DNA from: Butyricimonas virosa
Lineage (GTDB): Bacteria; Bacteroidota; Bacteroidia; Bacteroidales; Marinifilaceae
Length of the DNA stretch: 64,000 nucleotides
Direction: 5' to 3'
NCBI GenBank assembly: GCA_020743075.1
Contig: DYVS01000149.1
Location: 8,159 to 72,158, forward strand
Shown here: positions 36,030 to 53,724 of the stretch, one piece after another
How positions within the stretch are numbered: the first letter of the stretch is position 1
How the letters are laid out: every line of letters begins with the position of its first letter
The notes under the pieces: model-generated
The model's database searches: none
The model's input: only the letters and a program-made list of their open reading frames with translations
What the model was told of the DNA's origin: nothing
Made by a program: the position numbers and the translations under genes

Positions 36030-36207
36030 AGTATACAAGATAGAAACAAGGGGCAGCGTGATAACCCTGTACCGGAGAAGACTGGGTTTCCTGTGGTTTT
36101 CCGTCGAATCACGCACTTTTGGCTATTCTCAACATAGAATTAAAATCATGAAGGAATGGTTCGCAAAGTACGGGAAGGAGAATTTCATATCCGACAAGTG
36201 TTATTAA
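36016..36207 (+). CDS. hypothetical protein
   Basis: 63-aa ORF, last gene of the packed early block. Confidence 0.4.
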   Translation: MKMTRVYKIETRGSVITLYRRRLGFLWFSVESRTFGYSQHRIKIMKEWFAKYGKENFISDKCY

Positions 36208-36229
36208 AATATTTTATATCTTTGCACCA

Positions 36230-36637
36230 CGGCACGTGAAGGTGTGCCACGAAAATATTACGAACTAGTTCATTGTTCAGCAGAAATCGCCAGTTTCAAA
36301 TTTGAATAATCAAATGAGCTAGTTGGGCTTCCTATACGGTGGCTTGGCTAGTAGTTTGATTGTTAGGTCTCTGGCGATTCCTTGCTGACAGCGAACGTTA
36401 AGCCACTTTTTTATGGATAACGAAACAAAACAAGTTATAATCGACATCTCGCCCCTCGTGATCAGCGAGAGGTTCGATATATGGTACTTGTTAGAAGTGC
36501 CTGTTGATCCCGCTCTGGTTTTAGAGAAATACCCCGTGTGTGATAATTGACGTACTATGCTAGATGTGCCGCATGGCGAGTGATGCAAGTTAGAGTGGCA
36601 ACGTAGCGGCTTCTGGAAACGGGGGCCGCTTTTTTTA
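36230..36637 (+). ncRNA. candidate large structured ncRNA (about 400 nt)
   Basis: -7 box TATCTTTG at 36217-36224; terminator AGCGGC-N14-GCCGCT plus T7 at 36605-36637; helices 36278-36293/36371-36387 and 36309-36322/36348-36360, crossing helix GTGGCTT 36339-36345/AAGCCAC 36400-36406, ATCGA-CTCGC...GCGAG-TCGAT around 36440-36477; no credible ORF. Confidence 0.5.
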
Positions 36638-36739
36638 TATAGACTAATTTTAAATTTATAATCAAATAAACTTTTGTTATTTGCTATCGTATAATATACC
36701 ACTATGTGAAAGTAGCATTGGATAATAAAATAAATTTGC

Positions 36740-36766
36740 TATATTTGATAAATGATTATACATTTG
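36740..36766 (+). promoter_or_regulatory. tandem -7 boxes for the 36790 unit
   Basis: TATATTTG (36740-36747) and TACATTTG (36759-36766) upstream of ATG 36790. Confidence 0.45.
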
Positions 36767-36789
36767 CGCACCAATTTTAATAATATATT

Positions 36790-37389
36790 ATGGAAAGCGT
36801 TGCATTACAATATATTGTAGATAATTGGCCAACATTTGCCATCATCTTCATCGTTAGCATCACGTGTTATCGTATAGCAAGAAAATTCACGAAATGGGAA
36901 GATAAGCACAATAACATGCATAATGACAACGACAAGGAACACGACAAACTTATTGAATTGGTTAATAAAGCTCTATTTAAAATTGACACCCTTGAAAGAT
37001 TTCTTATAAAAAGAGGTGGGGCTGACTATGATGAGTTCACCAGAATGAATAGCCCTAGACAACTAAATGAAAAGGGACGTAAATTATTTAACGAGAGTGG
37101 AGCAAACGATTTCTTTGAAAACAACAAGCAACCTCTACTTCGTTTGTTAAATTCTGAAATATCAGAAATGAGAAACAAAACAGCATTAGATGTTGATTCT
37201 TGTGCGGCAAGGATATGTTTCAGTGTATCTAACAATAAAGATTTCAAAAAAATCAAAGATTTCGTGTACACTCATCCAGTATTTGAAGGCACGAATATAA
37301 CCATTAACACTATTACTATGTTAATGGGTATCGAGTTAAGAAATGAATACTTGAAATTGCATCCAGAGATAGATCCGATGTCTGAATAA
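36790..37389 (+). CDS. membrane-anchored hypothetical protein
   Basis: 199 aa; N-terminal TM (WPTFAIIFIVSITCY) then a soluble helical domain. Confidence 0.5.
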   Translation: MESVALQYIVDNWPTFAIIFIVSITCYRIARKFTKWEDKHNNMHNDNDKEHDKLIELVNKALFKIDTLERFLIKRGGADYDEFTRMNSPRQLNEKGRKLFNESGANDFFENNKQPLLRLLNSEISEMRNKTALDVDSCAARICFSVSNNKDFKKIKDFVYTHPVFEGTNITINTITMLMGIELRNEYLKLHPEIDPMSE

Positions 37390-37455
37390 AATATTTTAGC
37401 ATCAAAGTGATACATGAACTTTTAAAATACTGCCAATAACCTAAAATTAAAATTT

Positions 37456-37728
37456 ATGGAAGAAGAATATATCGAGGATGATAGTATTGACTCTGGAATC
37501 TCTATTAAACTTGGGAAAAGAACGGATAGTTTTGAGATGCTAGAAAGATTGTGCAAAGAAGAAGCTGAAAAATTACGGGCAACCATCGAGGTTCCTGATC
37601 ACGGGAAGGTTTCGGTTCCTTTTTGGACTGCTTACCAGTTCTCTGAACTTATCGGGGTAGCTTATTTTAGCAAGGACAAAAATGGAGAGGTTGTATACGA
37701 GCTAGATTTCTCTGAAACGACGTTATAA
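37456..37728 (+). CDS. hypothetical acidic protein
   Basis: 90-aa ORF followed by a strong terminator. Confidence 0.45.
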   Translation: MEEEYIEDDSIDSGISIKLGKRTDSFEMLERLCKEEAEKLRATIEVPDHGKVSVPFWTAYQFSELIGVAYFSKDKNGEVVYELDFSETTL

Positions 37729-37753
37729 ACTATTTTTATTAGATAATAGTCTA

Positions 37754-37800
37754 AAAGAAAGTGAATCAGGATTGCCGTCTTTAATTCACTTTCTTTTTTT
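37754..37800 (+). terminator. rho-independent terminator ending plus-strand transcription
   Basis: AAAGAAAGTGAAT...ATTCACTTTCTTT stem followed by a T-run. Confidence 0.7.
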
Positions 37801-37802
37801 AT

Positions 37803-37832
37803 ATACCAAAAATAAAGGGGCATCCCGCCCCT
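37803..37832 (-). terminator. rho-independent terminator ending the late operon
   Basis: AGGGGC-N5-GCCCCT hairpin followed on the minus strand by TTTATTTTT. Confidence 0.65.
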
Positions 37833-37982
37833 CTAACACGCCGCCAATCGTGCCACACTTCAAGTAACTGTTTAACCGCTTTCAAACGATAGCGAGCATC
37901 TCCGCTATGATTATAGCAGCGACCCCGGCGATACACTCGTTATCCAGCAAGTCCATTAAATACACTAAATTAGCATCGTTTT

Positions 37983-38429
37983 TCATGTGGCGTGTTTTTC
38001 AAGTTTCACATCTATATCTTTATCGTGACAATCACATATCAATCTCTTGATGGTCGGGAACATCATTTGCGCTATATCCCCGTTAATATAACAAGTCTCT
38101 TCTCCTTCAAGGTCTAGCCCGTTCGCCACGGCAACGTGCACCGACAAGTGATGTAACTCGTGAACGATCAGGTTAAAATACTGTTCCGGGCTTGTTGACA
38201 TGGCGAACACCACCACGGATTCCCGGGAAAAGAAATTACTAAAAGTCAAACCGTTATTCACCTGACCCGTGGATAGATTCATGTACGCCCGCTTCAAGCT
38301 ATAACCATCACACCCGAGATCCCTCAAGGTGTGCATGATCTCGTTCACGTGATACCTGGTGACGGGGTAAAAAGCGGTGACGTGCCACTTTTTACCTTTA
38401 ACGGTGATATTTAACTCCTGCCGGATCAT
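37983..38429 (-). CDS. putative zincin-like metallopeptidase (HExxH)
   Basis: 148 aa from ATG 38429 (ATGA overlap with the upstream stop); LIVHELHHLSVH motif. Confidence 0.45.
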   Translation of the reverse strand: MIRQELNITVKGKKWHVTAFYPVTRYHVNEIMHTLRDLGCDGYSLKRAYMNLSTGQVNNGLTFSNFFSRESVVVFAMSTSPEQYFNLIVHELHHLSVHVAVANGLDLEGEETCYINGDIAQMMFPTIKRLICDCHDKDIDVKLEKHAT

Positions 38430-38848
38430 ATCATGTCTTCCCAGGGTATAGGAATACCCTTGTCTTCTTGTTTGGTTATCCAGCAACGGAACACGCTTTC
38501 CGGTACCCCGTCAACGTCATCAATCTCGTCTTTCACCGCTTTACACAAGTGCAGCTCGTCCTCCACGCTAGACTTCCACCGGTCAGCGAGAATCATGTTC
38601 ATCACGTACACGAAGTTGTAACCAACGTTGTTCTCCAGTGTTACCCCGTTCTTGGATAGCAACTCTTCCGCCTTGTCTTTAGAATACGGCTCTATGTTTT
38701 CCAGTTTTCCGGTGGCGTTGTTCTTTCGCTTCATCTGGCTCACGGCGTACTCGCACGCTCTCTTCGAGAACGAGTACCCGTAATTCCTGAGGTACGCTCT
38801 CATCTCTTGCGGTATGTAGTTAAAACTACTTAATGCCTGTTTACACAT
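38426..38848 (-). CDS. hypothetical protein
   Basis: 140-aa ORF coupled to the HExxH gene. Confidence 0.45.
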   Translation of the reverse strand: MCKQALSSFNYIPQEMRAYLRNYGYSFSKRACEYAVSQMKRKNNATGKLENIEPYSKDKAEELLSKNGVTLENNVGYNFVYVMNMILADRWKSSVEDELHLCKAVKDEIDDVDGVPESVFRCWITKQEDKGIPIPWEDMI

Positions 38849-38899
38849 GATGGTATAATTTTAAGAGGGGCGGTTTCCCGTCCCCCGTTCTACATTTGA

Positions 38900-39139
38900 T
38901 TACATGAAACGTGGGTCGTACCCCGGGAAAAACGGATCAACACGCTCGTTCATGCCCCCGTTCATTCCACCGTTCCATTGTCCCCCGTTCTCACGGTAGC
39001 CCATTTGACCGCCACGTTGCCCGTAACCTTGGCTACCGCCACGTTGTCCCATGCTTTGCCCGATCTTGTTCAGCAACTTGTTGCATCTCTTTATATGATC
39101 TTGCAATTCTTCTCTAAGTTCGATGATTTCTTCATTCAT
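38900..39139 (-). CDS. Gly/Gln-rich small protein
   Basis: 79 aa; coiled-coil N-terminus then GQRGGSQGYGQRGGQMGY low-complexity tail. Confidence 0.4.
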   Translation of the reverse strand: MNEEIIELREELQDHIKRCNKLLNKIGQSMGQRGGSQGYGQRGGQMGYRENGGQWNGGMNGGMNERVDPFFPGYDPRFM

Positions 39140-39150
39140 AACTTGTTGTT

Positions 39151-39582
39151 TTAATCGTTAAAAAACTCTTTTAATTCTTGTATGTCAGCAACAGTGAATT
39201 TCAAGCTGCCCAAATCTCCCACGAGCATATCAAGCATGAAGTTTTGCTGGAGGCTTATCACGGCTTCTCCCTTACCGACAACCATTTTAATCATGCCATG
39301 CTTGTATTCTTTAACGTCCATCTCTTGGAACAACCCGGCTAGAGTGTCAATCATGACATCACTATCAACGGTTCCATCCTCGTTCGCGATAAACAAGAAG
39401 GCGGTGTCCAACCACTTGTTCACCCTGGAATCTTCCCTTGATAACAAGTTGTTGAAGCCGTTCTTGAAAAACGTCCTCGCTTGAGCTTTTTTAGGAAAAA
39501 TAGAATCAATCTTGCTTTCTCCCCACGAGCGAATGGCGTCTTTCACCTCGCCCTTGAACTGGTTAAGGTCTTCTTTTTTCAT
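39151..39582 (-). CDS. hypothetical protein
   Basis: 143-aa ORF. Confidence 0.45.
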   Translation of the reverse strand: MKKEDLNQFKGEVKDAIRSWGESKIDSIFPKKAQARTFFKNGFNNLLSREDSRVNKWLDTAFLFIANEDGTVDSDVMIDTLAGLFQEMDVKEYKHGMIKMVVGKGEAVISLQQNFMLDMLVGDLGSLKFTVADIQELKEFFND

Positions 39583-40103
39583 TTTTTACCTCCCTTGCTT
39601 GAACGTTTCATCTTCTGGTACTCCGAATACGGTATGTCCGGATACTTTTCCTTGTACTCTTGGAAATCACTTATTTCCTTGTCAACCTCCGAGGCTGCCG
39701 ACTTGCGCAACCTTTTTACAAGCGTTAGATGCTTGTCAAGGGCGTCTTTCCCCTCCGGGGAACCCTCCACGACTGGACGCATCATTTGCATGTATTTCGC
39801 TTGCAAGATAGACGTGATGACGTTCTGGCTCTCGACGAATTCCTCGTTACCCGTCACGATCTCGAATTCCTTGTCCGTCATCCCGGACACGATACTATCG
39901 ATCTCGTCCCAAACCGGGGTTTGACTTTGACTCGGGCGTTGCTCTTGTCTCGACATCTGCTCCTTGGCTTGAAGCATCGCCTTCTTCTTTTGCTCGATGG
40001 CCGCCTGCATCCTCTCTAGTTCTTGGAATTGAGATTCCATGTAGCCGGGAGATTGACCCAGTAACGGATCCCCTCCCGTGAAGAAAAAGTTATTTCCTTG
40101 CAT
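39579..40103 (-). CDS. hypothetical protein
   Basis: 174 aa from ATG 40103 (MQGNNFFFTGG...); the longer track ORF would overlap the upstream gene. Confidence 0.45.
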   Translation of the reverse strand: MQGNNFFFTGGDPLLGQSPGYMESQFQELERMQAAIEQKKKAMLQAKEQMSRQEQRPSQSQTPVWDEIDSIVSGMTDKEFEIVTGNEEFVESQNVITSILQAKYMQMMRPVVEGSPEGKDALDKHLTLVKRLRKSAASEVDKEISDFQEYKEKYPDIPYSEYQKMKRSSKGGKK

Positions 40104-40159
40104 GATTTGATAATTTCGTTTTACTTGAACGCTTGCGAGTTCTTCTCTTGCTTGATTGT

Positions 40160-40921
40160 TTAAGCTGGAGTGTTGCCTCCCGTCGTGTTGTTGCGAAAAC
40201 AACAGTAGCTCCCGATACCGGTGATGGTCGGTTCGGTGGGAACCACGACAACACCTTCTACCATCTTGCACGTTTTGCGATCGGTGTAATTGATGCCGGC
40301 GGTGAACGCTTTCTCGATCTCGCACTGGATCAACTTGTCTTGATACGGTCTAACGGCGTTGCTGATGGCAACTTGTGCTTTAAGGTCACACAGCTCCTTG
40401 CGGGTTTCATCGTCCTTGTCACGGGTGTACTTGTACAAGCTAAACAACTCGGCGTTAATCCGGTTGTTAACGGCGTCAATGTTATCCCGGTTTGACTTGT
40501 ACAACCCGAAATCGGCGTCAACCATCGTTTTGTACAGCCCGAATTTCTCCGCCACGTCAACCTCTCTCGAATCAGAGATAGCTTGCATGGATCCAACTTT
40601 CAATCGCCACATCTCGTTCGTGAGAGCGAGAGCGTCCTCGCATCCCTTTTCCCAAGCTTGAAAAGGCGTGGGTGCAACACAACCGGTAGCCCCGCCACCG
40701 TAAGAGTTAATGTTCACGTTACTTGGCACGCTTCCACCCCCGGCCAAGGATGTCCCTCCCCCAAGGATAGAACCGATCCCGCCGTTGTTGCGTCCCCACA
40801 AAGCGGCGGCACCTAAAACCGTACCGATGATTCCCAAGGTGAGCCCGGCATTCGCCCTTTCACGAGTTGAACGACGGTTTTCCCCGCCTTCCTCGTAGAC
40901 TTTCTTCTCGATAATTTCCAT
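40160..40921 (-). CDS. membrane-associated Gly-rich protein
   Basis: 253 aa; TM GLTLGIIGTVLGAAALW then a Gly-rich linker and helical domain. Confidence 0.45.
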   Translation of the reverse strand: MEIIEKKVYEEGGENRRSTRERANAGLTLGIIGTVLGAAALWGRNNGGIGSILGGGTSLAGGGSVPSNVNINSYGGGATGCVAPTPFQAWEKGCEDALALTNEMWRLKVGSMQAISDSREVDVAEKFGLYKTMVDADFGLYKSNRDNIDAVNNRINAELFSLYKYTRDKDDETRKELCDLKAQVAISNAVRPYQDKLIQCEIEKAFTAGINYTDRKTCKMVEGVVVVPTEPTITGIGSYCCFRNNTTGGNTPA

Positions 40922-40973
40922 GATATATTATTTTTATTTCTCCCACTATCGGGATTGAAACAAATTTCGGGAA

Positions 40974-41276
40974 TCACTCGTTGCTAATTAAATTATTGGT
41001 TGCTACATCGTTGCTACATTGTTGATAACAAGTTGACAGGATGAAGGAATGCTTCTTGCGATCGTGCAACGTGTTCTTCAACTTGTTCACCCCTTGACGG
41101 GTCATATTAAGGTACCTCGCCGTCAACGTGTCGGAAAATCCAAGATTGAACAACAAGTTTATCAATATGCTCCTCGCGTCAACGTGTTCTTGCTTCTTGC
41201 TGTAAATTAACTCGTTGTATTCTATCCCGGTCCTGCTCTCTACTATTTTTACCACCTCTCGAAAAATTTTTTCCAT
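40974..41276 (-). CDS. DnaA C-terminal-domain-like HTH protein
   Basis: 100 aa; ...KKQEHVDARSILINLLFNLGFSDTLTARYLNMTRQGV resembles the DnaA domain IV HTH. Confidence 0.45.
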   Translation of the reverse strand: MEKIFREVVKIVESRTGIEYNELIYSKKQEHVDARSILINLLFNLGFSDTLTARYLNMTRQGVNKLKNTLHDRKKHSFILSTCYQQCSNDVATNNLISNE

Positions 41277-41392
41277 TTTTCCTGTTTTTAATGTAACAAA
41301 ATAAAAATCCCGCCGTAAGATTAACCGGAAGAAGTCTTACAGCAGGATTTAATGGGTGGTACTATTACATCAGGGAAGTGAGCTTCTTCCTT

Positions 41393-41773
41393 TTATATTT
41401 TTATCAGCTTGAGTTTACGTAGTATTTTAAGGATGGACGGCACGCTTAACCCGGCTAGCAGGATAACGAGCCACCATAACGACCTCGGGACACGGTATTT
41501 CTCCTTGATCACTTCAACCGGGTAAGGAACACGTATCGTGTCTTGACGGTAAAACGTATCTCTAGCGTACACTTCCTTGTAAACGGTACGCCACCTGTCT
41601 TTAAATATTGTATCCCCCTTCACGATCATGAACACGCTATCCCGAACGTGAACGCTGTCAGTCTTGAAACGGTCAACGTATTCAGTCCTCGTTTCAGTCG
41701 TTTTAACGGGGATGTACTTCACGCTCTTACAACCCGACATCAACAAGATCATTAAAAGTATCGTTGTTTTCAT
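41393..41773 (-). CDS. candidate unimolecular spanin
   Basis: 126 aa; lipoprotein signal LLMILLMSGC plus C-terminal TM LWWLVILLAGLSVPSIL. Confidence 0.45.
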   Translation of the reverse strand: MKTTILLMILLMSGCKSVKYIPVKTTETRTEYVDRFKTDSVHVRDSVFMIVKGDTIFKDRWRTVYKEVYARDTFYRQDTIRVPYPVEVIKEKYRVPRSLWWLVILLAGLSVPSILKILRKLKLIKI

Positions 41774-42083
41774 GCTTTCTATTTTTTACTTCCACTTTAC
41801 AATACTCGGCGTACTCGTTGTAAGCCGCGAACTCGTCCGGCTTTGAATCCCTTTGTCGGAGGATGGCTAACTCTTCAGAAAGAGAGTATCTTTCCCGGAT
41901 CATGCTATTCACCTCTTCATTGTAGTTAATTTTGGTTTCTTCCGGTATTTCATCGACTTCCTCGAAATTACCGGCTGTATCACCCGGTAACAAGGTAGAC
42001 CGTTTGAAATAAGATTCCGTGCCAAGTCGATGAACGAACTTGCCGGAATCGCTATACACTTCTTTGCTCGTGATCTGTATCAT
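41727..42083 (-). CDS. hypothetical protein downstream of the tail fibre gene
   Basis: 118-aa acidic ORF; possible fibre assembly factor judged by position only. Confidence 0.4.
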   Translation of the reverse strand: MIQITSKEVYSDSGKFVHRLGTESYFKRSTLLPGDTAGNFEEVDEIPEETKINYNEEVNSMIRERYSLSEELAILRQRDSKPDEFAAYNEYAEYCKVEVKNRKHENNDTFNDLVDVGL

Positions 42084-42094
42084 GGTTTCTAAAT

Positions 42095-43942
42095 TTAAGC
42101 GGTTGCGAATGTTATCTGTTTAGCGGTTGCGGCCTCGATCAAGGCGTGCCAATCTACCTGCCCCTCGTCTTGAATCTTGTCGTAGACATCTGCATGAACG
42201 GTAACCGTGATTGGTGATGTGTTGGCGGCGTTGGTGATCAGGTATTGCAATGATTCAAGAGAAAGTAATGGAGAATCAGGGAATGAAATACTAGCAGATA
42301 ATTTATATAATAAAGCAGTTTCAAGTAAAATACATTGACTAAACGTATGATCAAAATATGATTTATCTTTTATACTATATACATATATCTGATTTATAAT
42401 TCGTTTTAATTTTTTACAACCATGAAACGCATAAAACATATCATCAGTCCTAATCATTCTAGTTTCATTAATATTATTACCAAAAGATAATCTAAGAACT
42501 TCCAATTTTTGATTAAAAAAGAATGATTCTCTAAAACTAACTATTCTACCATTTGTTTGTGTAATACCCATATTAAATCCAAGATTGGTTCTAAAAGTAG
42601 AACTAGCAAAAATATTATAATAAGATGAAAGCTTATCCATCACATGAGTTTGGAGGTAAATAGTTTTCATCTCCTCCTCCGTTATATCCGTCAACCCGTT
42701 CAGCTCGTAGAATCCAGTTTGCTCGTTATACACGGCCCCGGCGGCAACGTACAAGGCACGGTTTCCTTGCTGGGTGTTGAGAACGGTGGTGAGGTCGTTT
42801 ATACTTGTCGTTAATTCATCTTGCGCTGTCTTGATCTCTTCCACGGTTCCCGCGACGTTGTCCCCCTGCTCCTTGGCGTAATTCGCTTGTGTCGTGGCGT
42901 TTAAAGTGGCCGTCTCGGATTCTGATTTCAACCTGTTGAACTCGGTAACACGTCCTTCTTCTGCTTTTACACGGTTCGTCTCGGATTCTTTTCGTGATTG
43001 CTCGTTCGTGTCACGGGTGTTTTCAGCCGTTTGACGCTCGTTCTCTTTCTCGACACGGGTGTTTTCCGCTGTCACCCTGTTGTTTTCAGTTTCAACCCTC
43101 GATTGCTCGGCTTTCACCCTGTTATCCTCGGCGCTCGCCCTGCCAGTCTCTGCCGTTTCTCTAGCTTCCTCGTTGCTGGCACGGGTATTCTCGGCCTCTC
43201 GTCTCAGGTTCTCGGATTCCTTCCGGGCATTCTCGCTGGAAACACGTGTATTCTCGTTATTGATTCGCTGTTGCTCGTTTGCAGTCACCGCTTTATCAAG
43301 GGTATCCAAGGCATCGATCATGGCTCTAGCCGGCTCCTGTAACTCCTTGATTTGCTCTTCCGTGAAATCGGAATACTCGAAAGCCTTACCACGGGAAGGT
43401 TTGCCCGTGTCAACGTCACCGATCCACCAGTTGCCGTTCTCGCCGATAAACGGGGTTAAGCCGTCCTTGCCCTCTGCAACAACTCCCGTGTCCTCGATAC
43501 CGATCATCCAGCGTTTCGTATCCGGGTCTATTCTCGGTGTCACCCCGTCTTTCCAGTCCCTGTTACGCTCGATAATCCCTTTCAAGTTGATGGACGGTGA
43601 TTCACTCTCGAAACCGGCGTCTTCCTTGCAAGTCAAGTCAACGAGAATGAAAGCGTTGCAGAAGTCAAGGTAGAACTTGTCAATACCGGTCACGCTAGCC
43701 TCGTTCAGCTTCTCGTAATACAGGTGAACCTCGTATTGCCCAGAGGTAGCGTTACCGCCACCAACGAACTCGAATTCAATAATGTTGTCGTGTATCGTTA
43801 AAGGGGGAGATACTTGATAACTGCTGTACTTCCGGTTTATCGTCAACCTCACGTTTCTAGCGTCCGTGAAGTCCTCCGGCTCGTCGTTCAGCCGGTTCAC
43901 CGTTAACTTGAAAAATATGTTTTTGCCTACCCTTATTCTCAT
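42095..43942 (-). CDS. tail fibre / receptor-binding protein with BspA-type LRR C-terminus
   Basis: 615 aa; GVTPRIDP...GENGNWWIGDVDTGKPSRG fibre motif, 15 ExxRxxx heptads, C-terminal LRR-like segment (FHGCKKLKRI, FSQCILLETALLY). Confidence 0.65.
   Translation of the reverse strand: MRIRVGKNIFFKLTVNRLNDEPEDFTDARNVRLTINRKYSSYQVSPPLTIHDNIIEFEFVGGGNATSGQYEVHLYYEKLNEASVTGIDKFYLDFCNAFILVDLTCKEDAGFESESPSINLKGIIERNRDWKDGVTPRIDPDTKRWMIGIEDTGVVAEGKDGLTPFIGENGNWWIGDVDTGKPSRGKAFEYSDFTEEQIKELQEPARAMIDALDTLDKAVTANEQQRINNENTRVSSENARKESENLRREAENTRASNEEARETAETGRASAEDNRVKAEQSRVETENNRVTAENTRVEKENERQTAENTRDTNEQSRKESETNRVKAEEGRVTEFNRLKSESETATLNATTQANYAKEQGDNVAGTVEEIKTAQDELTTSINDLTTVLNTQQGNRALYVAAGAVYNEQTGFYELNGLTDITEEEMKTIYLQTHVMDKLSSYYNIFASSTFRTNLGFNMGITQTNGRIVSFRESFFFNQKLEVLRLSFGNNINETRMIRTDDMFYAFHGCKKLKRIINQIYVYSIKDKSYFDHTFSQCILLETALLYKLSASISFPDSPLLSLESLQYLITNAANTSPITVTVHADVYDKIQDEGQVDWHALIEAATAKQITFATA
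42941..43255 (-). repeat. 15 tandem heptads (E-x-x-R-x-x-x) in the fibre shaft
   Basis: ENTRVSS ENARKES ENLRREA ENTRASN EEARETA ETGRASA EDNRVKA EQSRVET ENNRVTA ENTRVEK ENERQTA ENTRDTN EQSRKES ETNRVKA EEGRVTE. Confidence 0.85.
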
Positions 43943-43943
43943 G

Positions 43944-45401
43944 TCACATCTTTATTATAACGTTACTTCTTTGCACCCCGTCAAGCTTTAACGACACGTG
44001 AAGGAAATTCTGCCTCCGGTAAAGTATTGCTTGGTCGAAGGGGATATTGTTATTCTCTAACGCCTCTAGAATGTCATTCGCCTTCCCGTCAATACTCAAA
44101 TCTGCCGCCTCGCCCTTGCAATTCCCCTGAATACTAATCTTGTCTTTCCTTCGGATAACAAGTGTTGTGTTTCGGTTATTTACACACCAGACAATTCCGT
44201 CATAATCAACTAAAGAAAAGCTGTCTTCTTTTACTTTCGTTTCATATTTGTTCGGATTGATGGTGATATGGTAAATTTCTTTGCTATTCCCCGTCATGCC
44301 TTTTATGTTGTATCTTCCAGCCTCTTTTTTGATATATTGATTTCGCATTCCGCTAAGGCAACACATGGCTTGGAGTATATCGACATTTTCCTTCACAGAA
44401 GAAATTATACTGAAGCTCTCGCAGTTCTCCCGTTTATCACAACTACCGTCGTAAAAGGAATAGTATCTAACCAGTTAGCGCAAATTATCGCTGCCTATAT
44501 TCAGAATCCATTTGGGTATTATCTTGTTTGGGCCTATAATATCGTATATTTGCCTGGCATAGAAACTTCGTAAATAGTAATTATATACGCCATGCCTATC
44601 TAATGTCTTCGTGTATAACCAGTCCAGTTCGTGAAGCAAACGTTCCAATTGTCTGCATTTGCGTTCCTTTTTGAATCTGAACCCAAGAGCAACGGAGCGT
44701 TTCTTATAGCAAAAAAATCCGTCAGAGATAGCCGCCATGCACATTTTCAAGAGGAGCATATCCGCTTCGAAATGACCTTTCATTACTCCAGCGCACAAGA
44801 AATGCCTTCGCCTCCCGTATACGTCTTCGATAAGTTCTATATGATACTTGTCGTTGTCCGTCTTCAGCGAATCGAAATAAGCCTGCCCTTTGGGGGTAAT
44901 ATTTAAACTGCCTTTTCTAACATACTTATGGCTGTCGTATCGGACAAGCATCCGGTGTTGGTCTGTTACCATCATATCGGTATGCAATGATTGTATGTGT
45001 ACCATTTTCCCCGAATGATGTCGTTTGATTATGCGCTCAATCGGCACAAGCTCGATGAATCCCGTATCCATATTATAGCTATACACGTTGTCACATTCAT
45101 TGATCGTATTAGGCGTAGTCCAACCTCTCTCCGTCAATATCTCAGTTTCAGAATCAAAACAATGCTGGCTCGTTGGTACACCGCCCACCGCCTTGTTCAG
45201 CTCCGGACACCTGTATCCCGAATTAACATGGATTGGAACACCTAGCTTGTCCCGCAAGGGCTGTATCGTCCGGCTAACCAGTACACGTAACGCCGCCAGT
45301 TCTTTCTCTCCCGGCTCGTTAATTATTCCCAGCCTGCTAGCGGTATCACTTCTGGTGAACTCCTCTAGGGTAAAATTCTCGCTTAATTTCTCGTTATTCA
45401 T
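43944..45401 (-). pseudogene. M15-family peptidase endolysin carrying an intein, interrupted by one in-frame TAA
   Basis: ORFs 44475-45401 and 43944-44396 share one frame and are separated only by TAA at 44475-44477; exteins give NFTLEEFTRSDTA...SGYRCPELNKAVGGVPTSQH + CKGEAADL...FDQAILY...HVS. Confidence 0.75.
44121..45161 (-). other. class-1 intein with LAGLIDADG homing endonuclease domain
   Basis: Cys1 CFDSETEILTERGW (block A), MVTDQHRMLV (block B), AAISDGFF and YYSFYDGS (LAGLIDADG 1 and 2), VDYDGIVWCVNNRNTTLVIRR...IQGN then +1 Cys. Confidence 0.75.
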
Positions 45402-45819
45402 CTTTAACCTCTATTATGTCCGCCTTCTTGGCGAATAATTTGAAAATGTTGATCTTGACCTTCTTCCCGTGAGCCTCGAAGTAGTTCCCGTAACAACTGT
45501 TTATCTCGCAACCGTACACCACCAGCAAAACGATAGAGGGCAAGATCGGCACGTCAAAAGGTATCCCGAAGGCTTTCCCCATCGCCCCGGCCACGAGTAT
45601 CCAGCACAGGTAATCGATGATCTTGTTAGCAGTGCGGCGTATCGCCCTAGACGGGCGTATTACCTCCCCACGTGCTTTAGCCGCCAGTATACCGAAACGA
45701 AGGTCAACGATAATCAGTATGAGACCCAGCAACAAGAACCACTTCAACGGCTCCATGAAGTCAAGAAGGTTGCTCATGATCGCCGCCATGAACCCGCCTA
45801 TCACGTTTCTCTCGTCCAT
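45394..45819 (-). CDS. phage holin family protein
   Basis: 141 aa from ATG 45819; 3-4 TM segments; IIVDLRFGILAAKARGEVIRPSR pattern of the holin_4 family; overlaps the endolysin start. Confidence 0.6.
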   Translation of the reverse strand: MDERNVIGGFMAAIMSNLLDFMEPLKWFLLLGLILIIVDLRFGILAAKARGEVIRPSRAIRRTANKIIDYLCWILVAGAMGKAFGIPFDVPILPSIVLLVVYGCEINSCYGNYFEAHGKKVKINIFKLFAKKADIIEVKDE

Positions 45820-45830
45820 GTTATAACCTT

Positions 45831-46007
45831 TTACTCGTTCTTGATATACTTCCCGTGCAACACCTTCCCCCACCAGCCAGCAAACACGCCGCAACCGAAT
45901 GAAATAACACTCGTCAACGACACCCAAGCCGGGACTACCTTCACGAAAACGATCAACGTCACCGCCGCTAGGGCAACGATCAACCAAAAAATTTGCTTCT
46001 TCTTCAT
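45831..46007 (-). CDS. small two-TM protein upstream of the holin (58 aa)
   Basis: ORF found by hand: MKKKQIFWLIVALAAVTLIVFVKVVPAWVSLTSVISFGCGVFAGWWGKVL... Confidence 0.4.
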   Translation of the reverse strand: MKKKQIFWLIVALAAVTLIVFVKVVPAWVSLTSVISFGCGVFAGWWGKVLHGKYIKNE

Positions 46008-46098
46008 GATATTTAAATTTAAGTTATACCTTTGTCTCGGGGTTACAAGGTAGCCTCTTGCATAAGCGGGGTCTGTTCCGAGACGGAACGCCCCTTTT

Positions 46099-46368
46099 TT
46101 ATTTCATGCAATCACGTATAGCGTCCGTTAGCTTGTTCGTGAAAAAATCGCTGTCAAGCAGCCGGACAAACAATTTCCCCTCGTTCTCGTCTAGCTCTAC
46201 CTCGCCATCTGACTTGTAAATTTTCTCCGCCAGCAACTTGTAACCGATACCGTTCGCCCCGGAGTAAATTAATTCCCCTACAGCTTCTCTTGTATCCATC
46301 TCTTTCACCTCGCCGGAAAGGCTCGTGAGTTTCAGTTTCTTGAAATTGATTTTGATTGTTTTTTCCAT
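46099..46368 (-). CDS. hypothetical protein
   Basis: 89-aa ORF between the Tal-like gene and the lysis genes. Confidence 0.45.
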   Translation of the reverse strand: MEKTIKINFKKLKLTSLSGEVKEMDTREAVGELIYSGANGIGYKLLAEKIYKSDGEVELDENEGKLFVRLLDSDFFTNKLTDAIRDCMK

Positions 46369-46398
46369 GTTTTGTATTTTGAATTATTTGTTTAAATA

Positions 46399-49300
46399 TT
46401 AATATGCCCTACCTGCTATGTTAGCAACAAAATTTCCCCCTCCAGACCATAAAACAATGTCCACGGCGTCACCTTTTTCTAGTGATAAATACGTGATTGC
46501 GGACCCGTTTTCGTTGTAAAGCGTGCATCCGTCACTTGGGTATAGTCTTGCAGAAGCATTATAAGTAAAAATCGATATTTTAATCATGAAAGCTTGTGAT
46601 GCCGATGAATCTAAAAATAAAACTTTCCTGATATGAGCTAAAGTTGGTAAATACACGTTAGTCAAAGAAGATAAATTGAGCATCACAATTTTACCACGAT
46701 CTATACGAATCGGACCGGAATTTGATAGTTCATAATACCTGTAATCAATTATAGCGTCACGAGAAACTATCAAACCATTATTAGCATAAATGGCATAATT
46801 GCGCCCGGCATCCGTGTACGTGTTAGGATGTCCAGTAGAATCTAATTTTAGAGCCACGTTGCATTGTGGCGCAGAACTAGCCCACACGGTACTAACTTCA
46901 AAACGAGCGGCTACGACCCCAAATCCCGTAGAAGAAGGAATGGTATTCACGCCTATCATGGCTAAAACATCATCATCTTTAAATTTAATAAAACTATCAT
47001 ATAGAGACATGCCTTTCGTTGGATTATTGATCGAACTAATAGTTCCTATTCTCCCGTTAGCTAAAGAGAATCCACCTATCTCGCTAGATTTTCCTAGTTT
47101 TAACAATTCTGAACCATCAACTTTCCCTATCAACCCCCAATCGCTATCATTGTTATAAAACAGGCTGATGTAATTATTCTCATCCTTGTAAGCCTTGAAA
47201 GACCTTTCCTCGTCTTTTGAAGTGATCTTGACACCCGGCCCAGTCCCGAAATCGCTACCACCGTAAATCTGCCCGTTTTGAAACTCGAACCCGCCGACAG
47301 AAATCATGTTAGCTGTGATAGACCCGGCTTTTAGAATGTTCGTTGATAACTTGTCAACCAGAGCGGTATCCGCCACCAGCGTCTCCACGTCAATCAACTT
47401 GGTGTTAATGTACGCCCCCTTGATTATCGTTTCACCTTTCGAGGCGTTCTCTACCATCTTGTCAAAATTACTATACCCAAGTTGTTGGGCGAGGTCATCC
47501 TTGGCGCTAAATTCTATATCCCCGTACCCGTCGGCGGTCAGGTCGAACGCCGTCATGTAAGCGATATACCATTCTAACGGGTCGGATTCGGTAGGAGCGG
47601 GTCCACCACTTATGTACACGTGTCCACCCACGCTAAAAGTTCCGGTTGCCCCGCAGACAACCTTACGAAGGTACGTCGTGTATTTCCCTGTACCCTCCGT
47701 GGGAGTTAGCCACGTGTCAGAATAGCCCGCTCCCATGCTATTGGAAGCTGTATTTATTTTATAACCAACAGGTATTTTGGCGATAATTTTTTGCACAAAC
47801 ACGGCATTCGCCCGGGAGGTTATATACTGGTATACCCCGCCATGCCCGGGTGCTTGAGCTGCTTTACACGTGACTTTCAGGCAGTACCCGGATTGTGTCG
47901 GGGCATCCGATGGCTTGGTAACTCTCTCTACCGTTAGTTTCGAAGCGATGTAATCAGGGGAGACGTTGCTTGAATTAGTGTATTTTGCCACCCCGTTTAA
48001 TCCCTTCTTGAACTCCGGGTCAGCGTACAGCATCTTTCCCCCGTCCATGCCGATCGCCCCGGTTGCCTTGTCAGCTTGCGCTTTCGCCGCTGCCGCAATC
48101 GAGTTGAGGATAGTTTGACGGGCGGGGTAATATGCCGCTATGTTATTGTAATCTGACCCCACCGCTATGTTTTCCGGTGATGTCGCGGTGTACTTGTCTA
48201 AAGCTGCTATGGCGGCATCGTAGGCTGACATGTAAGACGCCAACGAGATACTGAACCTGTTAGCGTTCGCCTCGATCTCGTTCTTTTCCGCTTGTATATC
48301 GCTCTTCTGCTGCCTCAATGCCGTTTTCTCCTGCGGGGAGATATAACCGTCGCTGGCCCATTCCCCGAGGCGGTTGTTTATCTCGTCAAATTCTTTTTGC
48401 ACGTCCCCAGCCGAAGGGCTCCATGAAGCGGGAGGGGTGAAGCCCTCGACGAGCATGATTTCGGTGAATTTTACACTTCGTAATAGTCCTTCCGACTGTA
48501 TGCCCGGGTAAAATAATAACCTGCCCTCTCTAGCAGTAAAATTGTTATTTGTTATCAACAATCCCGAGTTCATGCCCGCCTTGATAGTCCCTCTTGCGTA
48601 TCTTTGGGATTCAGCCAAGCTTGTGTCGTACAATCGAAATTCATACCCAGAAGGAATATCTCCAGAAATGACTTCTGCATTTGTAAATCTAAGCGAGTAA
48701 ACCGTGTTAGGTTTAATCACGGGAACTTTTAACGTTTTATAAGTTTGACTTGCTACCGTCACCTCTTTCCCCCCGTCCACCAGGTTCACGTTACTCTGCC
48801 CGGTTAGGTCTTCCGTCGCAACAGGAGGTTCGGCCAAGACCTTGTTTCCCTCGTAGAGGGCGAGGGAGTAGATAAAATTCGAGTAGGTTTGTCCCGGGTT
48901 CGCCACGTTCCAGTATAATCGAGCGATTGTCTTTCCTTGTTTAGAAATATAGTCATAACGCTTGTAGACAGAATCTTTTATCAGAAACGCTGCTTCTTTT
49001 GTGCTATCCGTGTATTCAACAATTAAATAAGGTCTCCATGATGAACCACCACTTGGATTCCCCTTGCAATTTACAGAGATAACGTATTGCGTACCATTCT
49101 TAAAATTGCTATACAATGTTGTATTATCCTTCGGGGCTACAGAAATATATATACCATCAGAATCTTGTCCCCATATTGCAGAACCATTAGCCGTGTTGTT
49201 CATGTCCAAAAGTATCTTCCTGCTCACTAGGTTTACGGAGCCGATTTGCAAGTTATTAACGGCATCCTGTCCCCCGATAATCCCTTGTTCCGTGGCGTAC

Positions 49301-52300
49301 CTGTTTTGATCCGCTATTGACGGGCTCCAGTCTGTTGCCTTGTTACCCTTCTCGTATTTCCAATCGGTTATATATATCGTGTTTTTTGTCCCGAAATGAA
49401 TAATATCTGACCCTGCTTTAGCCGTGAAAGTTATCACCTTTCTTTCCCATGATGTCGTCACGTGAACGGTAGTTGCCCCGTAGTTTGAACCATTATAGTG
49501 ATTCACTTGAGCGTCATATTCCTCGCTTCCCTTGACCCATAGCGAGAAAGTGTACTCGCCATCTTCTACCATCACGTGTGCGAATCTACAATTCGCAGAA
49601 TTCCGGTTAAATTGCAGGCAAGTTTTCCCCTCAATCTTTGTTTTTGAAGCGTATGAACTGTCATAAAGCCCGAGTACATCCAGGAAATTCCCCCCGCTAT
49701 AATCCGCCAAGTTGATTCCCCCAATTTGAAGGTTACCGACCGACTCGTCCGCCACCTTTTGCGCTATGACGTTGGCGAAGGCGGTACGCTCGGAGTAGTA
49801 GTTGGCGAAGTCTTGGTTGTACTCGGTCTTCTGCGCCACGGACAGGTTGCTGTCAATATCCTGCGCTATTTTAACCGTGTTCGTCAAGAACGTGTTCAGC
49901 GTGTTGTAGGCGTTTTGAAGGGCAGTTATAGAGACCCCGTACTTTGTCGCTTGCGCTTGGTAGGCAGTGAATTCTTTCTGTATTTGATTCCACGTGTCCC
50001 GTAGGGTGGCTTTCTCTTCCTTCGTGATAACGTTATCATCCGCCATCTTCGCCAGCCGGAGCATGGTGTCATTGAAAAGCTGCCAGTCGGACTGGGAACC
50101 GGTCTCGCCGTCTAACCTTTGATGGTTGCAGATGTACATCGAACCGTCAAGTTTTATCCACATGTCGTTGATGTTGTACGGTGCCTCCGGTAGCGTGTTT
50201 CCCCACGTGATGGTTGCTTTCGTCCCGGCTAGACCGAGGGCTTCTCTCGCCACGCTGGCGGCCAATGCCGAGCCGGAATCGGCGACACGTACCCATTGAT
50301 ATTCCCCGTTTAACTTCGAGAACTTGTACCTCTCCGTCACATTCTGCCCGTCAACGGTCAAGAAGTAATCGTAGTAATCACCGATATGTCGATTCTTCTC
50401 TTCTTCCGAGGTCCATTTCACCGCCGGCTCGTTCGTCAACGTCGGGGGGACCGTCCCTTCATGAGACATTATACTACCGTCTATCTGCCCCTGCAAGTCG
50501 GGAATAATTACGGAAGTGAGGTCGTTCACCACGTATTGAACCGAATCCGCCAAGTCTTTAGCGTCCTGTATCCTCTTGTCAACGTCCTCGTACTCGTCAA
50601 ATTGCTCGAGACCTGATGACCCGGCCGTTATGTGAACCTCTCCCCGGATAACCGCACCTTTCTTCCCCCCGTGTTTCCCTAGCCACGATCCCTCCTTGTT
50701 GGAAAGGTCGAAACTGTTTATACCGTAATACGTGAATATACCCACCTCCCCGTTAACGGCAGATAACAACACTGCATCCTGTCGATCCGGGTTCGTCCTG
50801 TTGCCGAGTTGCACTATCTCGTCCCCCTCGGCAGGCACGCCGTCACCGTCCTTGTCGACCCGGGAGATGTCGATGTAATCGTCACCCCTTGATAGAACTA
50901 GCGACCACAGGTACTTTATGTTGTTACCCGTGAAGTTCTGTATCCTCGCTTGATCGTTCACCTCGAACTCGTTGAAGTCCTCCGGCCTGCAATAAACACG
51001 GTAGTAAGTGTCGAAGGTCTCGACACGGTCAATCTTGAACCCCGTTGCCGGGCTTAACACCATTATCCCTCCTTGAAACCTCATTCGCTGGATCATCATT
51101 TCAAGGACGTACATGATCTTGCGAACGAGTAACTTGTCCGTCTGCAACTCGTCATCGTTCACCATCCCGACACCGGCACCGAGAGGCCCGGCGGCGAAGT
51201 TCCAGCTCTTGAAAGAACGTAACAACACGTCACGAAACTCGGCGTTACCGAGGGCGTCTATTACCCATCCCTTTAACTTGCTCTCGAAGTCTGTGGAGGT
51301 AACGCTATTGAACTTTACGGGGTCATAAGTGTGGAGTTTTTGATCCATCCATAACGGTCTCCATTGATTGATGAGAACGTTGAATAATCTCCGCACGTCT
51401 TCTAGGCTTATAAGTTGCTTTAGAGTGACTTGTATTTGCTCGATTTGATTATTCACGTTATCCTCGTAAGAATACAGTATCTCATCGCCAAGCTCGTAGT
51501 TTATTTCATCGCTACTTGAAGATTGATTTATCGCTAATATGCGTGTATTTATACTATGCTCACCTACTTTTACTGTTATGCTGTCTCCAATATCTAAAGA
51601 ATATCCCTTTTTGGTGAGAAATCTTTTACTAACTTTTACACTTGGAGCGTATTGTGGTTCACTCCTTTTATTTAATTCTTCTTGTGTCGCTTTTCTTAAT
51701 TCTTCTTCAGCCTCGTCAATGTAGGATTGAGGCATATTTATATTTAGCAAGACAAAAACGTCCCCAATTCTAGGTTGCCTACTTGTGTTAGGCAGCCTGT
51801 AACCATCCTCTTCTTCTTGAACGATGATTTGTAACGTTTTATCAGTGTTATTCCAGCTATTATCAACAATTTCAAATTCACTTCCGGTTAGATCTCCTGT
51901 TTGGAACTTGACAATTGGCACTTTATCATCTGCGTATTGTTGGGATAAATCAAACGGGATGTCGAGTTTTAACTTCCATGCAACAGCTTTTTCAATATCT
52001 TCTGGTATGGTAACATCTAAAACGGTCTTGTTTATTAGCCTAGGGAATATATTATCATTCGTGTAAACACCCGTGATTTTACCGTATTTATCAGTATTTT
52101 TTTCTAATATATCATTTCCTAAATTTAAACGTTTAGGAGTGTCAGGAGAGACGTAATCTTTAGGTAGATTAACTGTTCCACCTTTCCCAATCAGTCTGGT
52201 GGCAATAAAAGTATTTTGCACTTTGTCAAGTCTAACTGAATATCCTCCTTTCTCCTTGCCGTATTCGAACACTACATCCACGTCTTTCCCGATACGGTAT

Positions 52301-52830
52301 TTCACGTTAATACTAGTGCCTATAAGGTTCCATTCCATGTTTGCCGCCTCGCATATATCATCGAGAGCTTGGAAACAAGAGCTATTGTCAAATTCGAGAT
52401 CGATAATATTACCCTCGTCAATATCCCCTGCAGTGTATTCTTGTTGATCCTCGTTCAAGGATAATATTACAAGATCAACGAATTCTTTTATTCCCCCGTG
52501 ATAAGGGAATGTGGTCGCTCCCTCGTCTTTCACAATGGAAAATTTCAACTTATAGTCAGGAGAACGAAAGACAAGAGGGTAGGAGAAGACCCCATTACTT
52601 TCTTCCACGTCAATAGGGTCATAAATAGTGTAATGGCTACCGTCTTCTATGATGTAATCCCCTATTTTGATGTCAAGACTATCCTTTGATTCAACATTAA
52701 ATGACACGTTATTATCGTGAGACATCGAACGTCTTATGTCATCATCTTCTATTACGAAATCGTGCTTCTTTACGCCTAGCCTGTATATGCTATATGTCTT
52801 CATTTGCATGGATAATTTTGCTTGTTTCAA
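46399..52830 (-). CDS. giant tail tip / host-specificity protein (Tal-like N-terminus)
   Basis: 2143 aa, follows Dit; N-terminal region resembles the phage minor structural protein N-terminal domain; long beta-rich C-terminal extensions. Confidence 0.7.
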   Translation of the reverse strand: MKQAKLSMQMKTYSIYRLGVKKHDFVIEDDDIRRSMSHDNNVSFNVESKDSLDIKIGDYIIEDGSHYTIYDPIDVEESNGVFSYPLVFRSPDYKLKFSIVKDEGATTFPYHGGIKEFVDLVILSLNEDQQEYTAGDIDEGNIIDLEFDNSSCFQALDDICEAANMEWNLIGTSINVKYRIGKDVDVVFEYGKEKGGYSVRLDKVQNTFIATRLIGKGGTVNLPKDYVSPDTPKRLNLGNDILEKNTDKYGKITGVYTNDNIFPRLINKTVLDVTIPEDIEKAVAWKLKLDIPFDLSQQYADDKVPIVKFQTGDLTGSEFEIVDNSWNNTDKTLQIIVQEEEDGYRLPNTSRQPRIGDVFVLLNINMPQSYIDEAEEELRKATQEELNKRSEPQYAPSVKVSKRFLTKKGYSLDIGDSITVKVGEHSINTRILAINQSSSSDEINYELGDEILYSYEDNVNNQIEQIQVTLKQLISLEDVRRLFNVLINQWRPLWMDQKLHTYDPVKFNSVTSTDFESKLKGWVIDALGNAEFRDVLLRSFKSWNFAAGPLGAGVGMVNDDELQTDKLLVRKIMYVLEMMIQRMRFQGGIMVLSPATGFKIDRVETFDTYYRVYCRPEDFNEFEVNDQARIQNFTGNNIKYLWSLVLSRGDDYIDISRVDKDGDGVPAEGDEIVQLGNRTNPDRQDAVLLSAVNGEVGIFTYYGINSFDLSNKEGSWLGKHGGKKGAVIRGEVHITAGSSGLEQFDEYEDVDKRIQDAKDLADSVQYVVNDLTSVIIPDLQGQIDGSIMSHEGTVPPTLTNEPAVKWTSEEEKNRHIGDYYDYFLTVDGQNVTERYKFSKLNGEYQWVRVADSGSALAASVAREALGLAGTKATITWGNTLPEAPYNINDMWIKLDGSMYICNHQRLDGETGSQSDWQLFNDTMLRLAKMADDNVITKEEKATLRDTWNQIQKEFTAYQAQATKYGVSITALQNAYNTLNTFLTNTVKIAQDIDSNLSVAQKTEYNQDFANYYSERTAFANVIAQKVADESVGNLQIGGINLADYSGGNFLDVLGLYDSSYASKTKIEGKTCLQFNRNSANCRFAHVMVEDGEYTFSLWVKGSEEYDAQVNHYNGSNYGATTVHVTTSWERKVITFTAKAGSDIIHFGTKNTIYITDWKYEKGNKATDWSPSIADQNRYATEQGIIGGQDAVNNLQIGSVNLVSRKILLDMNNTANGSAIWGQDSDGIYISVAPKDNTTLYSNFKNGTQYVISVNCKGNPSGGSSWRPYLIVEYTDSTKEAAFLIKDSVYKRYDYISKQGKTIARLYWNVANPGQTYSNFIYSLALYEGNKVLAEPPVATEDLTGQSNVNLVDGGKEVTVASQTYKTLKVPVIKPNTVYSLRFTNAEVISGDIPSGYEFRLYDTSLAESQRYARGTIKAGMNSGLLITNNNFTAREGRLLFYPGIQSEGLLRSVKFTEIMLVEGFTPPASWSPSAGDVQKEFDEINNRLGEWASDGYISPQEKTALRQQKSDIQAEKNEIEANANRFSISLASYMSAYDAAIAALDKYTATSPENIAVGSDYNNIAAYYPARQTILNSIAAAAKAQADKATGAIGMDGGKMLYADPEFKKGLNGVAKYTNSSNVSPDYIASKLTVERVTKPSDAPTQSGYCLKVTCKAAQAPGHGGVYQYITSRANAVFVQKIIAKIPVGYKINTASNSMGAGYSDTWLTPTEGTGKYTTYLRKVVCGATGTFSVGGHVYISGGPAPTESDPLEWYIAYMTAFDLTADGYGDIEFSAKDDLAQQLGYSNFDKMVENASKGETIIKGAYINTKLIDVETLVADTALVDKLSTNILKAGSITANMISVGGFEFQNGQIYGGSDFGTGPGVKITSKDEERSFKAYKDENNYISLFYNNDSDWGLIGKVDGSELLKLGKSSEIGGFSLANGRIGTISSINNPTKGMSLYDSFIKFKDDDVLAMIGVNTIPSSTGFGVVAARFEVSTVWASSAPQCNVALKLDSTGHPNTYTDAGRNYAIYANNGLIVSRDAIIDYRYYELSNSGPIRIDRGKIVMLNLSSLTNVYLPTLAHIRKVLFLDSSASQAFMIKISIFTYNASARLYPSDGCTLYNENGSAITYLSLEKGDAVDIVLWSGGGNFVANIAGRAY

Positions 52831-53665: not shown

Positions 53666-53724
53666 AGATATAAAATTATAGTTTCTTTCAAAAGAATAAT
53701 ATCAAAATTTTATACAGTATAAAA

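Follow-up and report, generated by a model that had tools for sequence, protein, structure and literature searches.

The DNA analysed here is a 64,000-nucleotide stretch (the window, whose coordinates are used throughout) of a 75,952-bp contig in a metagenome-assembled genome (MAG) of Butyricimonas virosa. On its minus strand, two open reading frames (ORFs), 45401..44475 (308 residues) and 44396..43944 (150 residues), lie in a common frame, and NCBI annotates them as two proteins, HJF70890.1 and HJF70889.1. Straight translation of 45401..43944 gives 485 codons with a TAA at 44477..44475 as the sole internal stop, confirming what had been noted in an earlier prediction made from the sequence (hereafter the original prediction). 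This prediction had read the pair as an endolysin of the M15 peptidase family in which a LAGLIDADG intein, bearing Cys1, a terminal Asn and a Cys at position +1, is inserted after a zinc-ligand His, and both fold and residue conservation agree with it. We conclude that a prophage endolysin is encoded here, a small zinc peptidase of the LAS type (Peptidase_M15_3) whose gene comes right after a holin-like one, and that the insert is a genuine LAGLIDADG-endonuclease intein (Table 1).

To begin with the host enzyme, cutting residues 81-427 (45161..44121, 347 codons) out in silico left a 138-residue protein that matched the Pfam family Peptidase_M15_3 over profile positions 2-108 of 108 (78.4 bits), whereas the interrupted form matched positions 2-68 only (58.9 bits). 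The spliced form also matched PHROG 894 'endolysin' (5.5e-40), and its SQHCKGEAADL aligned to SRHMYGHAADL of the zinc D-Ala-D-Ala carboxypeptidase 1LBU, with His80 opposite His154 and Asp434 opposite Asp161. The expectation that excision of 44121-45161 restores SxHxxGxAxD is therefore borne out by the extent of the M15 profile match and by the 1LBU alignment; the SxHxxGxAxD...H zinc signature and the full profile match were present only after splicing in silico. The His of SxH and the Asp of GxAxD are, as we take from established knowledge of LAS/M15 enzymes, two of the three zinc ligands, and the insert lies right after the former and, in spliced numbering, seven residues before the latter. 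Among 91 homologues carrying the insert, His80 and Asp434 are invariant (91/91 each), and His468 is kept in 90.

The insert has the expected landmarks of an endonuclease-bearing intein, and the motifs named in the original prediction (CFDSETEILT, MVTDQHRM, AAISDGFF, LVRYYSFYDGS and QGN/CKGEAAD, the slash marking the junction) were all found where it had placed them. Over the same 91 homologues, Cys81, which is Cys1 and opens CFDSETEILT, is present in every sequence, as are Trp405, Cys406, Thr413, Gly426 and Asn427 of blocks F and G, and position +1 (Cys428) is Cys in 90 and Ser in one. Such conservation is what would be expected if splicing and endonuclease activities were both under selection. 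PHROG 12229, an intein-containing ribonucleotide reductase (RNR), aligned with insert residues 1-341 (4.6e-10). An AlphaFold (AF2) model, built on a 99%-identical intact allele with the 91 homologues, had a mean predicted local distance difference test score (pLDDT) of 90.3, and its best 16 Foldseek matches in the PDB were all endonuclease-bearing inteins, including TliVMA, PI-SceI, PI-PfuI and PhoVMA (E 6e-15 to 3.5e-8; 6e-15 to 3e-12 for the TliVMA, PI-SceI and PI-PfuI inteins). The free-standing LAGLIDADG enzymes I-SceI and I-DmoI ranked next, after the inteins. In sequence-based searches, phmmer with the insert as query found only noise-level matches in the PDB, and a profile search with alignment A2 gave weak matches to 1LBU and two mini-inteins together with a spurious one to ribosomal uL13. 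It was the fold comparison that settled what the insert is, and the overall resemblance lies well outside chance. The hidden Markov model (HMM) searches suggested in the original prediction were positive in part: Peptidase_M15_3 was found as described, generic intein profiles stayed below cut-off for the insert of the window, and at the level of the family Intein_splicing (E<=0.01) matched 22 and LAGLIDADG_3 matched 31 of the 91 homologues. As written in the window, the TAA parts the two LAGLIDADG motifs, and the chain before the stop holds motif 1 only.

Table 1. Features of the interrupted lysin gene and of its prophage setting
Feature	Coordinates	Strand	Remarks
N-extein, residues 1-80, ending SQH; His80 is the first zinc ligand	45162..45401	-	Peptidase_M15_3 2-68
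Intein, 347 codons, Cys81..Asn427: Hint domain with nested LAGLIDADG homing endonuclease; includes the in-frame TAA	44121..45161	-	
Block A CFDSETEILTERG with Cys1 nucleophile	45123..45161	-	TIGR01445 intein_Nterm from residue 1, E 0.012
Block B TDMMVTDQHRML with TxxH	44946..44981	-	Thr146 and His149 in 91/91 homologues
LAGLIDADG motif 1 LKMCMAAISDGFF	44712..44750	-	Asp227 and Gly228 in 91/91 homologues
In-frame TAA, codon 309	44475..44477	-	GAA (Glu) in independent assembly
LAGLIDADG motif 2 LVRYYSFYDGS, directly after the stop	44442..44474	-	Asp318 in 90/91, Gly319 in 91/91 homologues
Blocks F and G YDGIVWCVNNRNTTLVIRRKDKISIQGN with terminal Asn427	44121..44204	-	
C-extein, residues 428-485 (CKGEAAD...HVS) and stop codon; Cys+1, second zinc ligand Asp434, His468	43944..44120	-	
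Putative holin, 141 residues from internal ATG	45394..45819	-	3' end overlaps lysin start by 8 nt
Tyrosine integrase	10745..11977		Arm-DNA-bind_5, Phage_int_SAM_5 and Phage_integrase domains

The surroundings of the gene are those of a prophage. Cellular genes, including a glycosyltransferase and an ECF-type sigma factor, occupy the window from 1 to about 10,400. A tRNA-Ser(gct) and a tRNA-Pro(tgg) at 10453-10637 stand directly upstream of the tyrosine integrase, and this tRNA pair and the integrase (10453..11977) mark one prophage end, with the cellular genes to the left; to the right, the window continues as a prophage of siphovirus-like type, with genes for capsid, tape measure, terminase and portal. 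The putative holin matched Pfam Phage_holin_4_1 with E 2e-4 and 21.8 bits, slightly under the 22.2-bit cut-off, and related prophages have a 141-residue gene at the equivalent position. No second muralytic Pfam domain is on record for the other genes with precomputed Pfam hits between 17.3 and 64 kb.

Intein-free alleles, transfer and spread

With the spliced lysin as query, we recovered many proteins that are each exactly 138 residues long and 93-98% identical to it, in which the junction reads SQH-Q-KGEAAD, or has R in place of Q. The comparison with intein-less alleles that the original prediction had proposed was thus possible, and these alleles align exactly across the junction. These alleles sit in related prophages and in the same gene order, in which a tail fibre of about 2000 residues is followed by genes of 89, 58 and 141 residues and then by the lysin. 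At the DNA level, they are 93-97% identical to the window up to 45171-45175, and the identity resumes at 44117. The insert is a clean 1041-bp presence/absence polymorphism in one gene order.

The intein and its exteins have diverged to different degrees. Between the window and a second allele that has the intein, P0104 (present on over 50 contigs), 5 of 1041 nt differ in the intein, and 28 of 240 differ in the N-extein and 18 of 177 in the C-extein, amounting to 46 of 417 nt for the exteins combined. The exteins of the window are closest to an intein-free allele, P0116, and the differences between these two fall almost all into ten substitutions no more than 19 nt from the junction, where the window reads CCAACGAGCCAGCAT/TGCAAGGGC and P0116 reads CCCACGTCGCAACAC/CAGAAAGGC. 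This ten-substitution block, which includes the change from Gln to Cys at position +1, is common to both intein-bearing alleles, and the co-transferred flanks span 13-36 nt on the 5' side and 6-23 nt on the 3' side. The low divergence of the intein relative to the exteins, together with the common flanking block, therefore indicates that the intein moved between diverged lysin alleles with short flanks, the sequence pattern left by homing with co-conversion.

We considered whether Cys at position +1 is restricted to intein-bearing alleles, and this was rejected: an uninterrupted TSQHCKGEAAD occurs on 119 IMG/VR contigs, mostly in ORFs of 125-200 codons, consistent with intein-free lysins. The natural variation of the family thus includes Cys at this position, which offers the intein a site ready for insertion. 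The G+C content is 40.2% in the intein (44121..45161), 40.7% in the whole prophage and 48.7% in the lysin exteins (43947..44120 and 45162..45401). Free-standing homing-endonuclease genes of the HNH/NUMOD4 kind were also seen in related prophages (L011, 12116-12417; L019, 13930-14520), and phage genomes of this type therefore host several kinds of homing element.

When 5.8 billion proteins were searched with the insert, about 100 clusters of 470-510-residue proteins came up in which M15 exteins surround a copy of it, at 31-99% identity and with E-values as low as 1e-235. Each of the 91 homologues is a single ORF. There are 118 matching loci in IMG/VR. Among GenBank phages, the lysin intein is present in two of 50,697 records. 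One is Bacteroides phage BF766P4, isolated on B. fragilis DA766, whose coding sequence 4947-6365 is labelled 'hypothetical protein' and reads SDH/CFDEKTE...QGN/CKGFAAD; the other is crAss-like phage cr53_1 (NC_055889.1), whose gp75 (L026, 2237-3742) is annotated only as 'VOG2995 / phosphoesterase'. Six TAG codons interrupt the reading frame of the cr53_1 gene, whose terminal stop is TAA; this late gene is thus recoded at TAG and would need protein splicing as well. When the spliced extein of its divergent type was searched, using the relative P0023, no Pfam hit was obtained, yet the H...D...H pattern is kept. That BF766P4 was isolated and propagated with an interrupted lysin suggests that splicing works in vivo. 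The other 116 GenBank phage records are distant relatives, with full-length matches at 21-28% identity, and the hosts inspected among them were genes for RNR, NAMPT, thymidylate synthase, DNA polymerase, primase/helicase, portal and methyltransferase proteins. Megablast of 43000-47000 against GenBank phages gave no match; the relatives surfaced at the protein level. A scan of GTDB representative genomes yielded one lysin-intein locus (Tannerellaceae) and three unrelated inteins, and says little on taxonomic spread.

A relative of the intein at 32% identity was also found in another type of protein. P0097 (ENA, 485 residues) is a DUF5675 protein with weak similarity to YkuD/Tlde1 of the L,D-transpeptidase fold, and its intein likewise follows a conserved His (VLIH/CITPDTEILT...IIGN/CGNTAYDSDGC). 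From this example, inteins in lysis and cell-wall enzymes may not be confined to M15.

None of the copies of the lysin intein is annotated as an intein; the labels are 'hypothetical' or plain 'carboxypeptidase'. The original prediction knew of no intein in a lysin, and we likewise found no description of one in the open-access literature searched. In a published survey, none of 224 mycobacteriophage Lysin A genes was interrupted by an intein (PMC3314691). The lysin intein is common in phages and prophages of gut Bacteroidota and apparently undescribed. It belongs to a widespread family and is not a one-off, which lowers its rarity and raises confidence that the element works.

The in-frame stop codon

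At the DNA level, the stop codon is a GAA-to-TAA change, a single G-to-T substitution. The corresponding alignment column is Glu in 13 of 13 homologues of alignment A1, and in the wider set it is Glu in 52 and Gln in 22 of 91. For comparison we used an ENA scaffold, MUNK18-1_SAMEA104467198_124 (95,939 bp), which encodes an identical 615-residue neighbouring protein. Over 9,848 bp round the lysin, this scaffold and the window differ at one position, 44477, where ENA has G and hence an intact 485-residue gene; over 17342..64000 of the window (46.7 kb), they differ at two positions in total, 44477 and 62550. At 62550, in the minus-strand ORF 62401..62850, the window has GAG in an intact 149-residue gene upstream of the tape-measure gene, and ENA has TAG, leaving 100 residues. 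Each assembly has one private G/T change from Glu to stop, at the first codon base and on the same strand, and the pair could represent G-to-T sequencing damage or null alleles segregating in the lysogen population. The intact 485-residue protein was found on two contigs (ENA, and a Logan contig of 104,601 bp), and the 308- and 150-residue fragments on the NCBI MAG contig only. No second lesion was found in the lysin gene. We judge the chances to be about evenly divided between an assembly or consensus error and a real variant that is minor or very recent. If real, the TAA would end the precursor once the first half of the endonuclease has been made, and would kill both lysin and endonuclease in that genome.

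A stronger version of the latter case is that the TAA is real and fixed, leaving a lysis-defective prophage without a working lysin or homing endonuclease, in early decay or domestication. The base is present in the deposited MAG, where NCBI annotated two proteins; the M15 gene is the sole recognisable lysin among the prophage genes with precomputed Pfam hits, so its loss would matter; and the different private Glu-to-stop change in another late gene of the sister assembly fits segregating null alleles. On the other hand, the allele is a singleton, the gene carries no further lesion, about 10 kb of sequence around it holds no other difference, the intact protein is present in two other assemblies, and a MAG consensus is no proof of fixation. 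We regard fixation as a tentative reading that deserves consideration and has less than an even chance of being correct.

The original prediction had also raised a nascent split intein, in which translation would resume at GTG 44396 or ATG 44366 and both halves would trans-splice to an active lysin. The break does fall in the endonuclease domain, where natural split inteins are generally known to divide; GTG and ATG codons lie in frame 26 and 36 codons downstream of the stop; and blocks A and B are on one fragment with F and G on the other. However, the allele is in no other assembly, all 91 homologues being single ORFs, and there is no mark of a restart site in the sequence beyond the GTG and ATG codons themselves. 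In addition, a C-terminal fragment begun at GTG 44396 would be without the second LAGLIDADG helix, leaving no intact interface between the halves, and inteins split artificially at such positions frequently require help in associating, which also counts against a split intein here. Reading the TAA as an evolved split intein is not supported, and we consider it extremely improbable.

Decoding of the stop, by recoding or by programmed read-through as in recoded gut phages, has a precedent in the family, since cr53_1 reads its own copy through six in-frame stops. Those six are all TAG, however, and the end of the cr53_1 gene is still TAA. In the window, the gene has a single in-frame stop, there is no suppressor tRNA (tRNA-Ser and tRNA-Pro are the only tRNAs), and the sister assembly has GAA. 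Neither many in-frame TAA codons in other late prophage genes nor a TAA-reading tRNA was seen, and decoding of the TAA can be considered almost negligible as an explanation.

Of the three meanings that the original prediction had offered for the stop, then, a sequencing error or a very recent null fits the data, and the nascent split intein does not. The weight that the prediction had placed on the TAA was not upheld, since every close relative has GAA and the change is private to one MAG contig and is one of two differences in 46.7 kb. The TAA is of little weight in itself, and serves as a warning on single-base features of MAG consensus sequences.

Splicing, lysis and known systems

The whole is very probably best explained as a prophage M15 lysin that carries a mobile splicing intein, with the TAA as a private change, either erroneous or a null variant that is minor or very recent. 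The gene would be translated as a single 485-residue precursor, predicted to be enzymatically inert since its metal site is split. The intein would then excise itself by means of Cys1, TxxH, the terminal Asn and Cys+1, and splicing in the cytoplasm would join His80 to Cys428 (SQH to CKGEAAD), giving an active 138-residue lysin that could get to the cell wall through the holin. The freed intein would cut intein-free lysin alleles in co-infecting or co-resident phages, and repair would copy the intein into them, along with a few flanking codons including that of Cys+1.

The splice site itself departs from that of a textbook intein in having Gly426 for the penultimate His, Cys406 (VWCV) for the block-F Asp and Thr413 for the block-F His; the block F/G and class 3 positions were assigned by eye. 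The RNR and NAMPT inteins of Staphylococcus phages likewise have a block-F Cys and a penultimate Gly, and a penultimate Gly has been recorded in other inteins (PMC3556154). Assignment to the class 3 inteins, which have a Trp-Cys-Thr signature (Trp at B:12, Cys at F:4, Thr at G:5) and mostly lack a nucleophile at residue 1, was rejected: B:12 is Met, Val or Leu, G:5 is Gln and Cys1 is invariant, and the block-F Cys alone fits.

Several points weigh against the explanation given above. The insert of the window scores below curated thresholds with generic intein HMMs (Hint_2, E 0.11; TIGR01445, 16.6 bits with a cut-off of 24.5). Both protein splicing and endonuclease activity are activities that we infer. 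Without the penultimate His and the block-F Asp and His, the chemistry may differ from the textbook class 1 route. As for the stop codon, the private G-to-T nonsense change at 62550 in the ENA assembly could mean that these changes are real segregating nulls and not errors. The first and third of these points would also be expected if the insert were a non-splicing Hint/LAGLIDADG insertion, such as a degenerate or bacterial-intein-like domain, and the 485-residue protein worked as it is or was processed otherwise: the generic HMM scores of the window sequence are weak, and the C-terminal blocks are non-canonical, with Gly in the penultimate position in place of His and Cys as residue 4 of block F. 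Such an insertion, however, would part zinc ligands that are seven residues apart in the spliced enzyme. Moreover, Cys1, the terminal Asn and Cys+1 each change in at most one of the 91 homologues, the intein-free alleles show exact colinearity, and propagated phages have relatives with these non-canonical blocks in their genes for RNR, NAMPT, thymidylate synthase and DNA polymerase. We therefore hold a non-splicing insertion to be highly unlikely, and retain a mobile splicing intein as the explanation.

Cys1, the block-F Cys and Cys+1 are three invariant cysteines around the splice centre, adjoining the zinc site. Because the intein parts two zinc ligands, no active lysin would exist before splicing. 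It is conceivable, if rather unlikely, that splicing is slow or conditional, for example redox- or zinc-sensitive through the cysteine trio, and acts as a post-translational lysis timer or safety catch in Bacteroidota phages, the crAss-like ones included. If true, this would be a selfish element co-opted for lysis control, and the locus offers a tractable test of whether the timing of lysis can be gated by protein splicing.

To our knowledge, almost all described inteins are in replication, repair, nucleotide-metabolism or packaging proteins. A large and conserved intein clade, evidently mobile, in the active site of phage endolysins widens this host range to the lysis machinery, and P0097 widens it to a second type of cell-wall enzyme. 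The annotation of gut phage and prophage lysins is corrected accordingly, including those of a cultured Bacteroides phage and a crAss-like phage. In practical terms, the active enzyme would be the 138-residue spliced product, which is relevant to lysin antimicrobials and to the prediction of lysis genes by length or domain.

The inteins most similar in fold are PI-SceI, VMA and PI-PfuI (1VDE, 7QSU, 1DQ3), in which an endonuclease with two LAGLIDADG motifs is likewise nested in a Hint domain. They also share Cys1, TxxH and the terminal Asn, are seated in a conserved active-site motif of the host protein, and show homing behaviour. They differ in being only 9-16% identical and in having an ATPase, a polymerase or RNR as host in place of an endolysin, and the lysin intein has Gly for their penultimate His and Cys for their block-F Asp. 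The nearest non-lysin relatives in sequence are inteins of Staphylococcus (Twort-like), Escherichia, Pseudomonas and Vibrio phages, at 21-28% identity over 347 residues, and those of the Staphylococcus phages have the same block-F Cys and ...GN end. Unlike the lysin intein, the phage inteins in RNR, NAMPT, thymidylate synthase, polymerase and primase-helicase have exteins of nucleotide metabolism and replication. The lysin inteins form a clade of their own, with 31-99% identity among themselves.

Natural split inteins of the DnaE type and 'fractured genes' are divided where the endonuclease was inserted, and the break in the window lies in a like region. In contrast to those, it consists of one nonsense base in one assembly, with endonuclease remnants on both sides and intact sister assemblies. 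A split intein is recognised by two separately expressed genes that are conserved as such in independent genomes, and the fragments here are found on one contig.

A selfish homing element in a lysis gene has a parallel at the RNA level, in that group I introns with homing endonucleases interrupt the endolysin genes of Staphylococcus phage K-like phages. In both cases, removal of the element is needed for the enzyme; the introns are removed from RNA, whereas the lysin intein would be removed from the protein, so that an inactive full-length precursor is made.

The Hedgehog proteins combine an M15-like zinc domain with a Hint domain (PMC6027127), and so resemble the interrupted lysin in joining a zinc fold of the LAS/M15 type to the Hint autoprocessing fold. 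In Hedgehog, however, the Hint domain follows the zinc domain and brings about cleavage with cholesterol transfer, whereas that of the lysin is nested in the zinc site, with splicing as its predicted activity. There is no indication that the two combinations share an ancestor.

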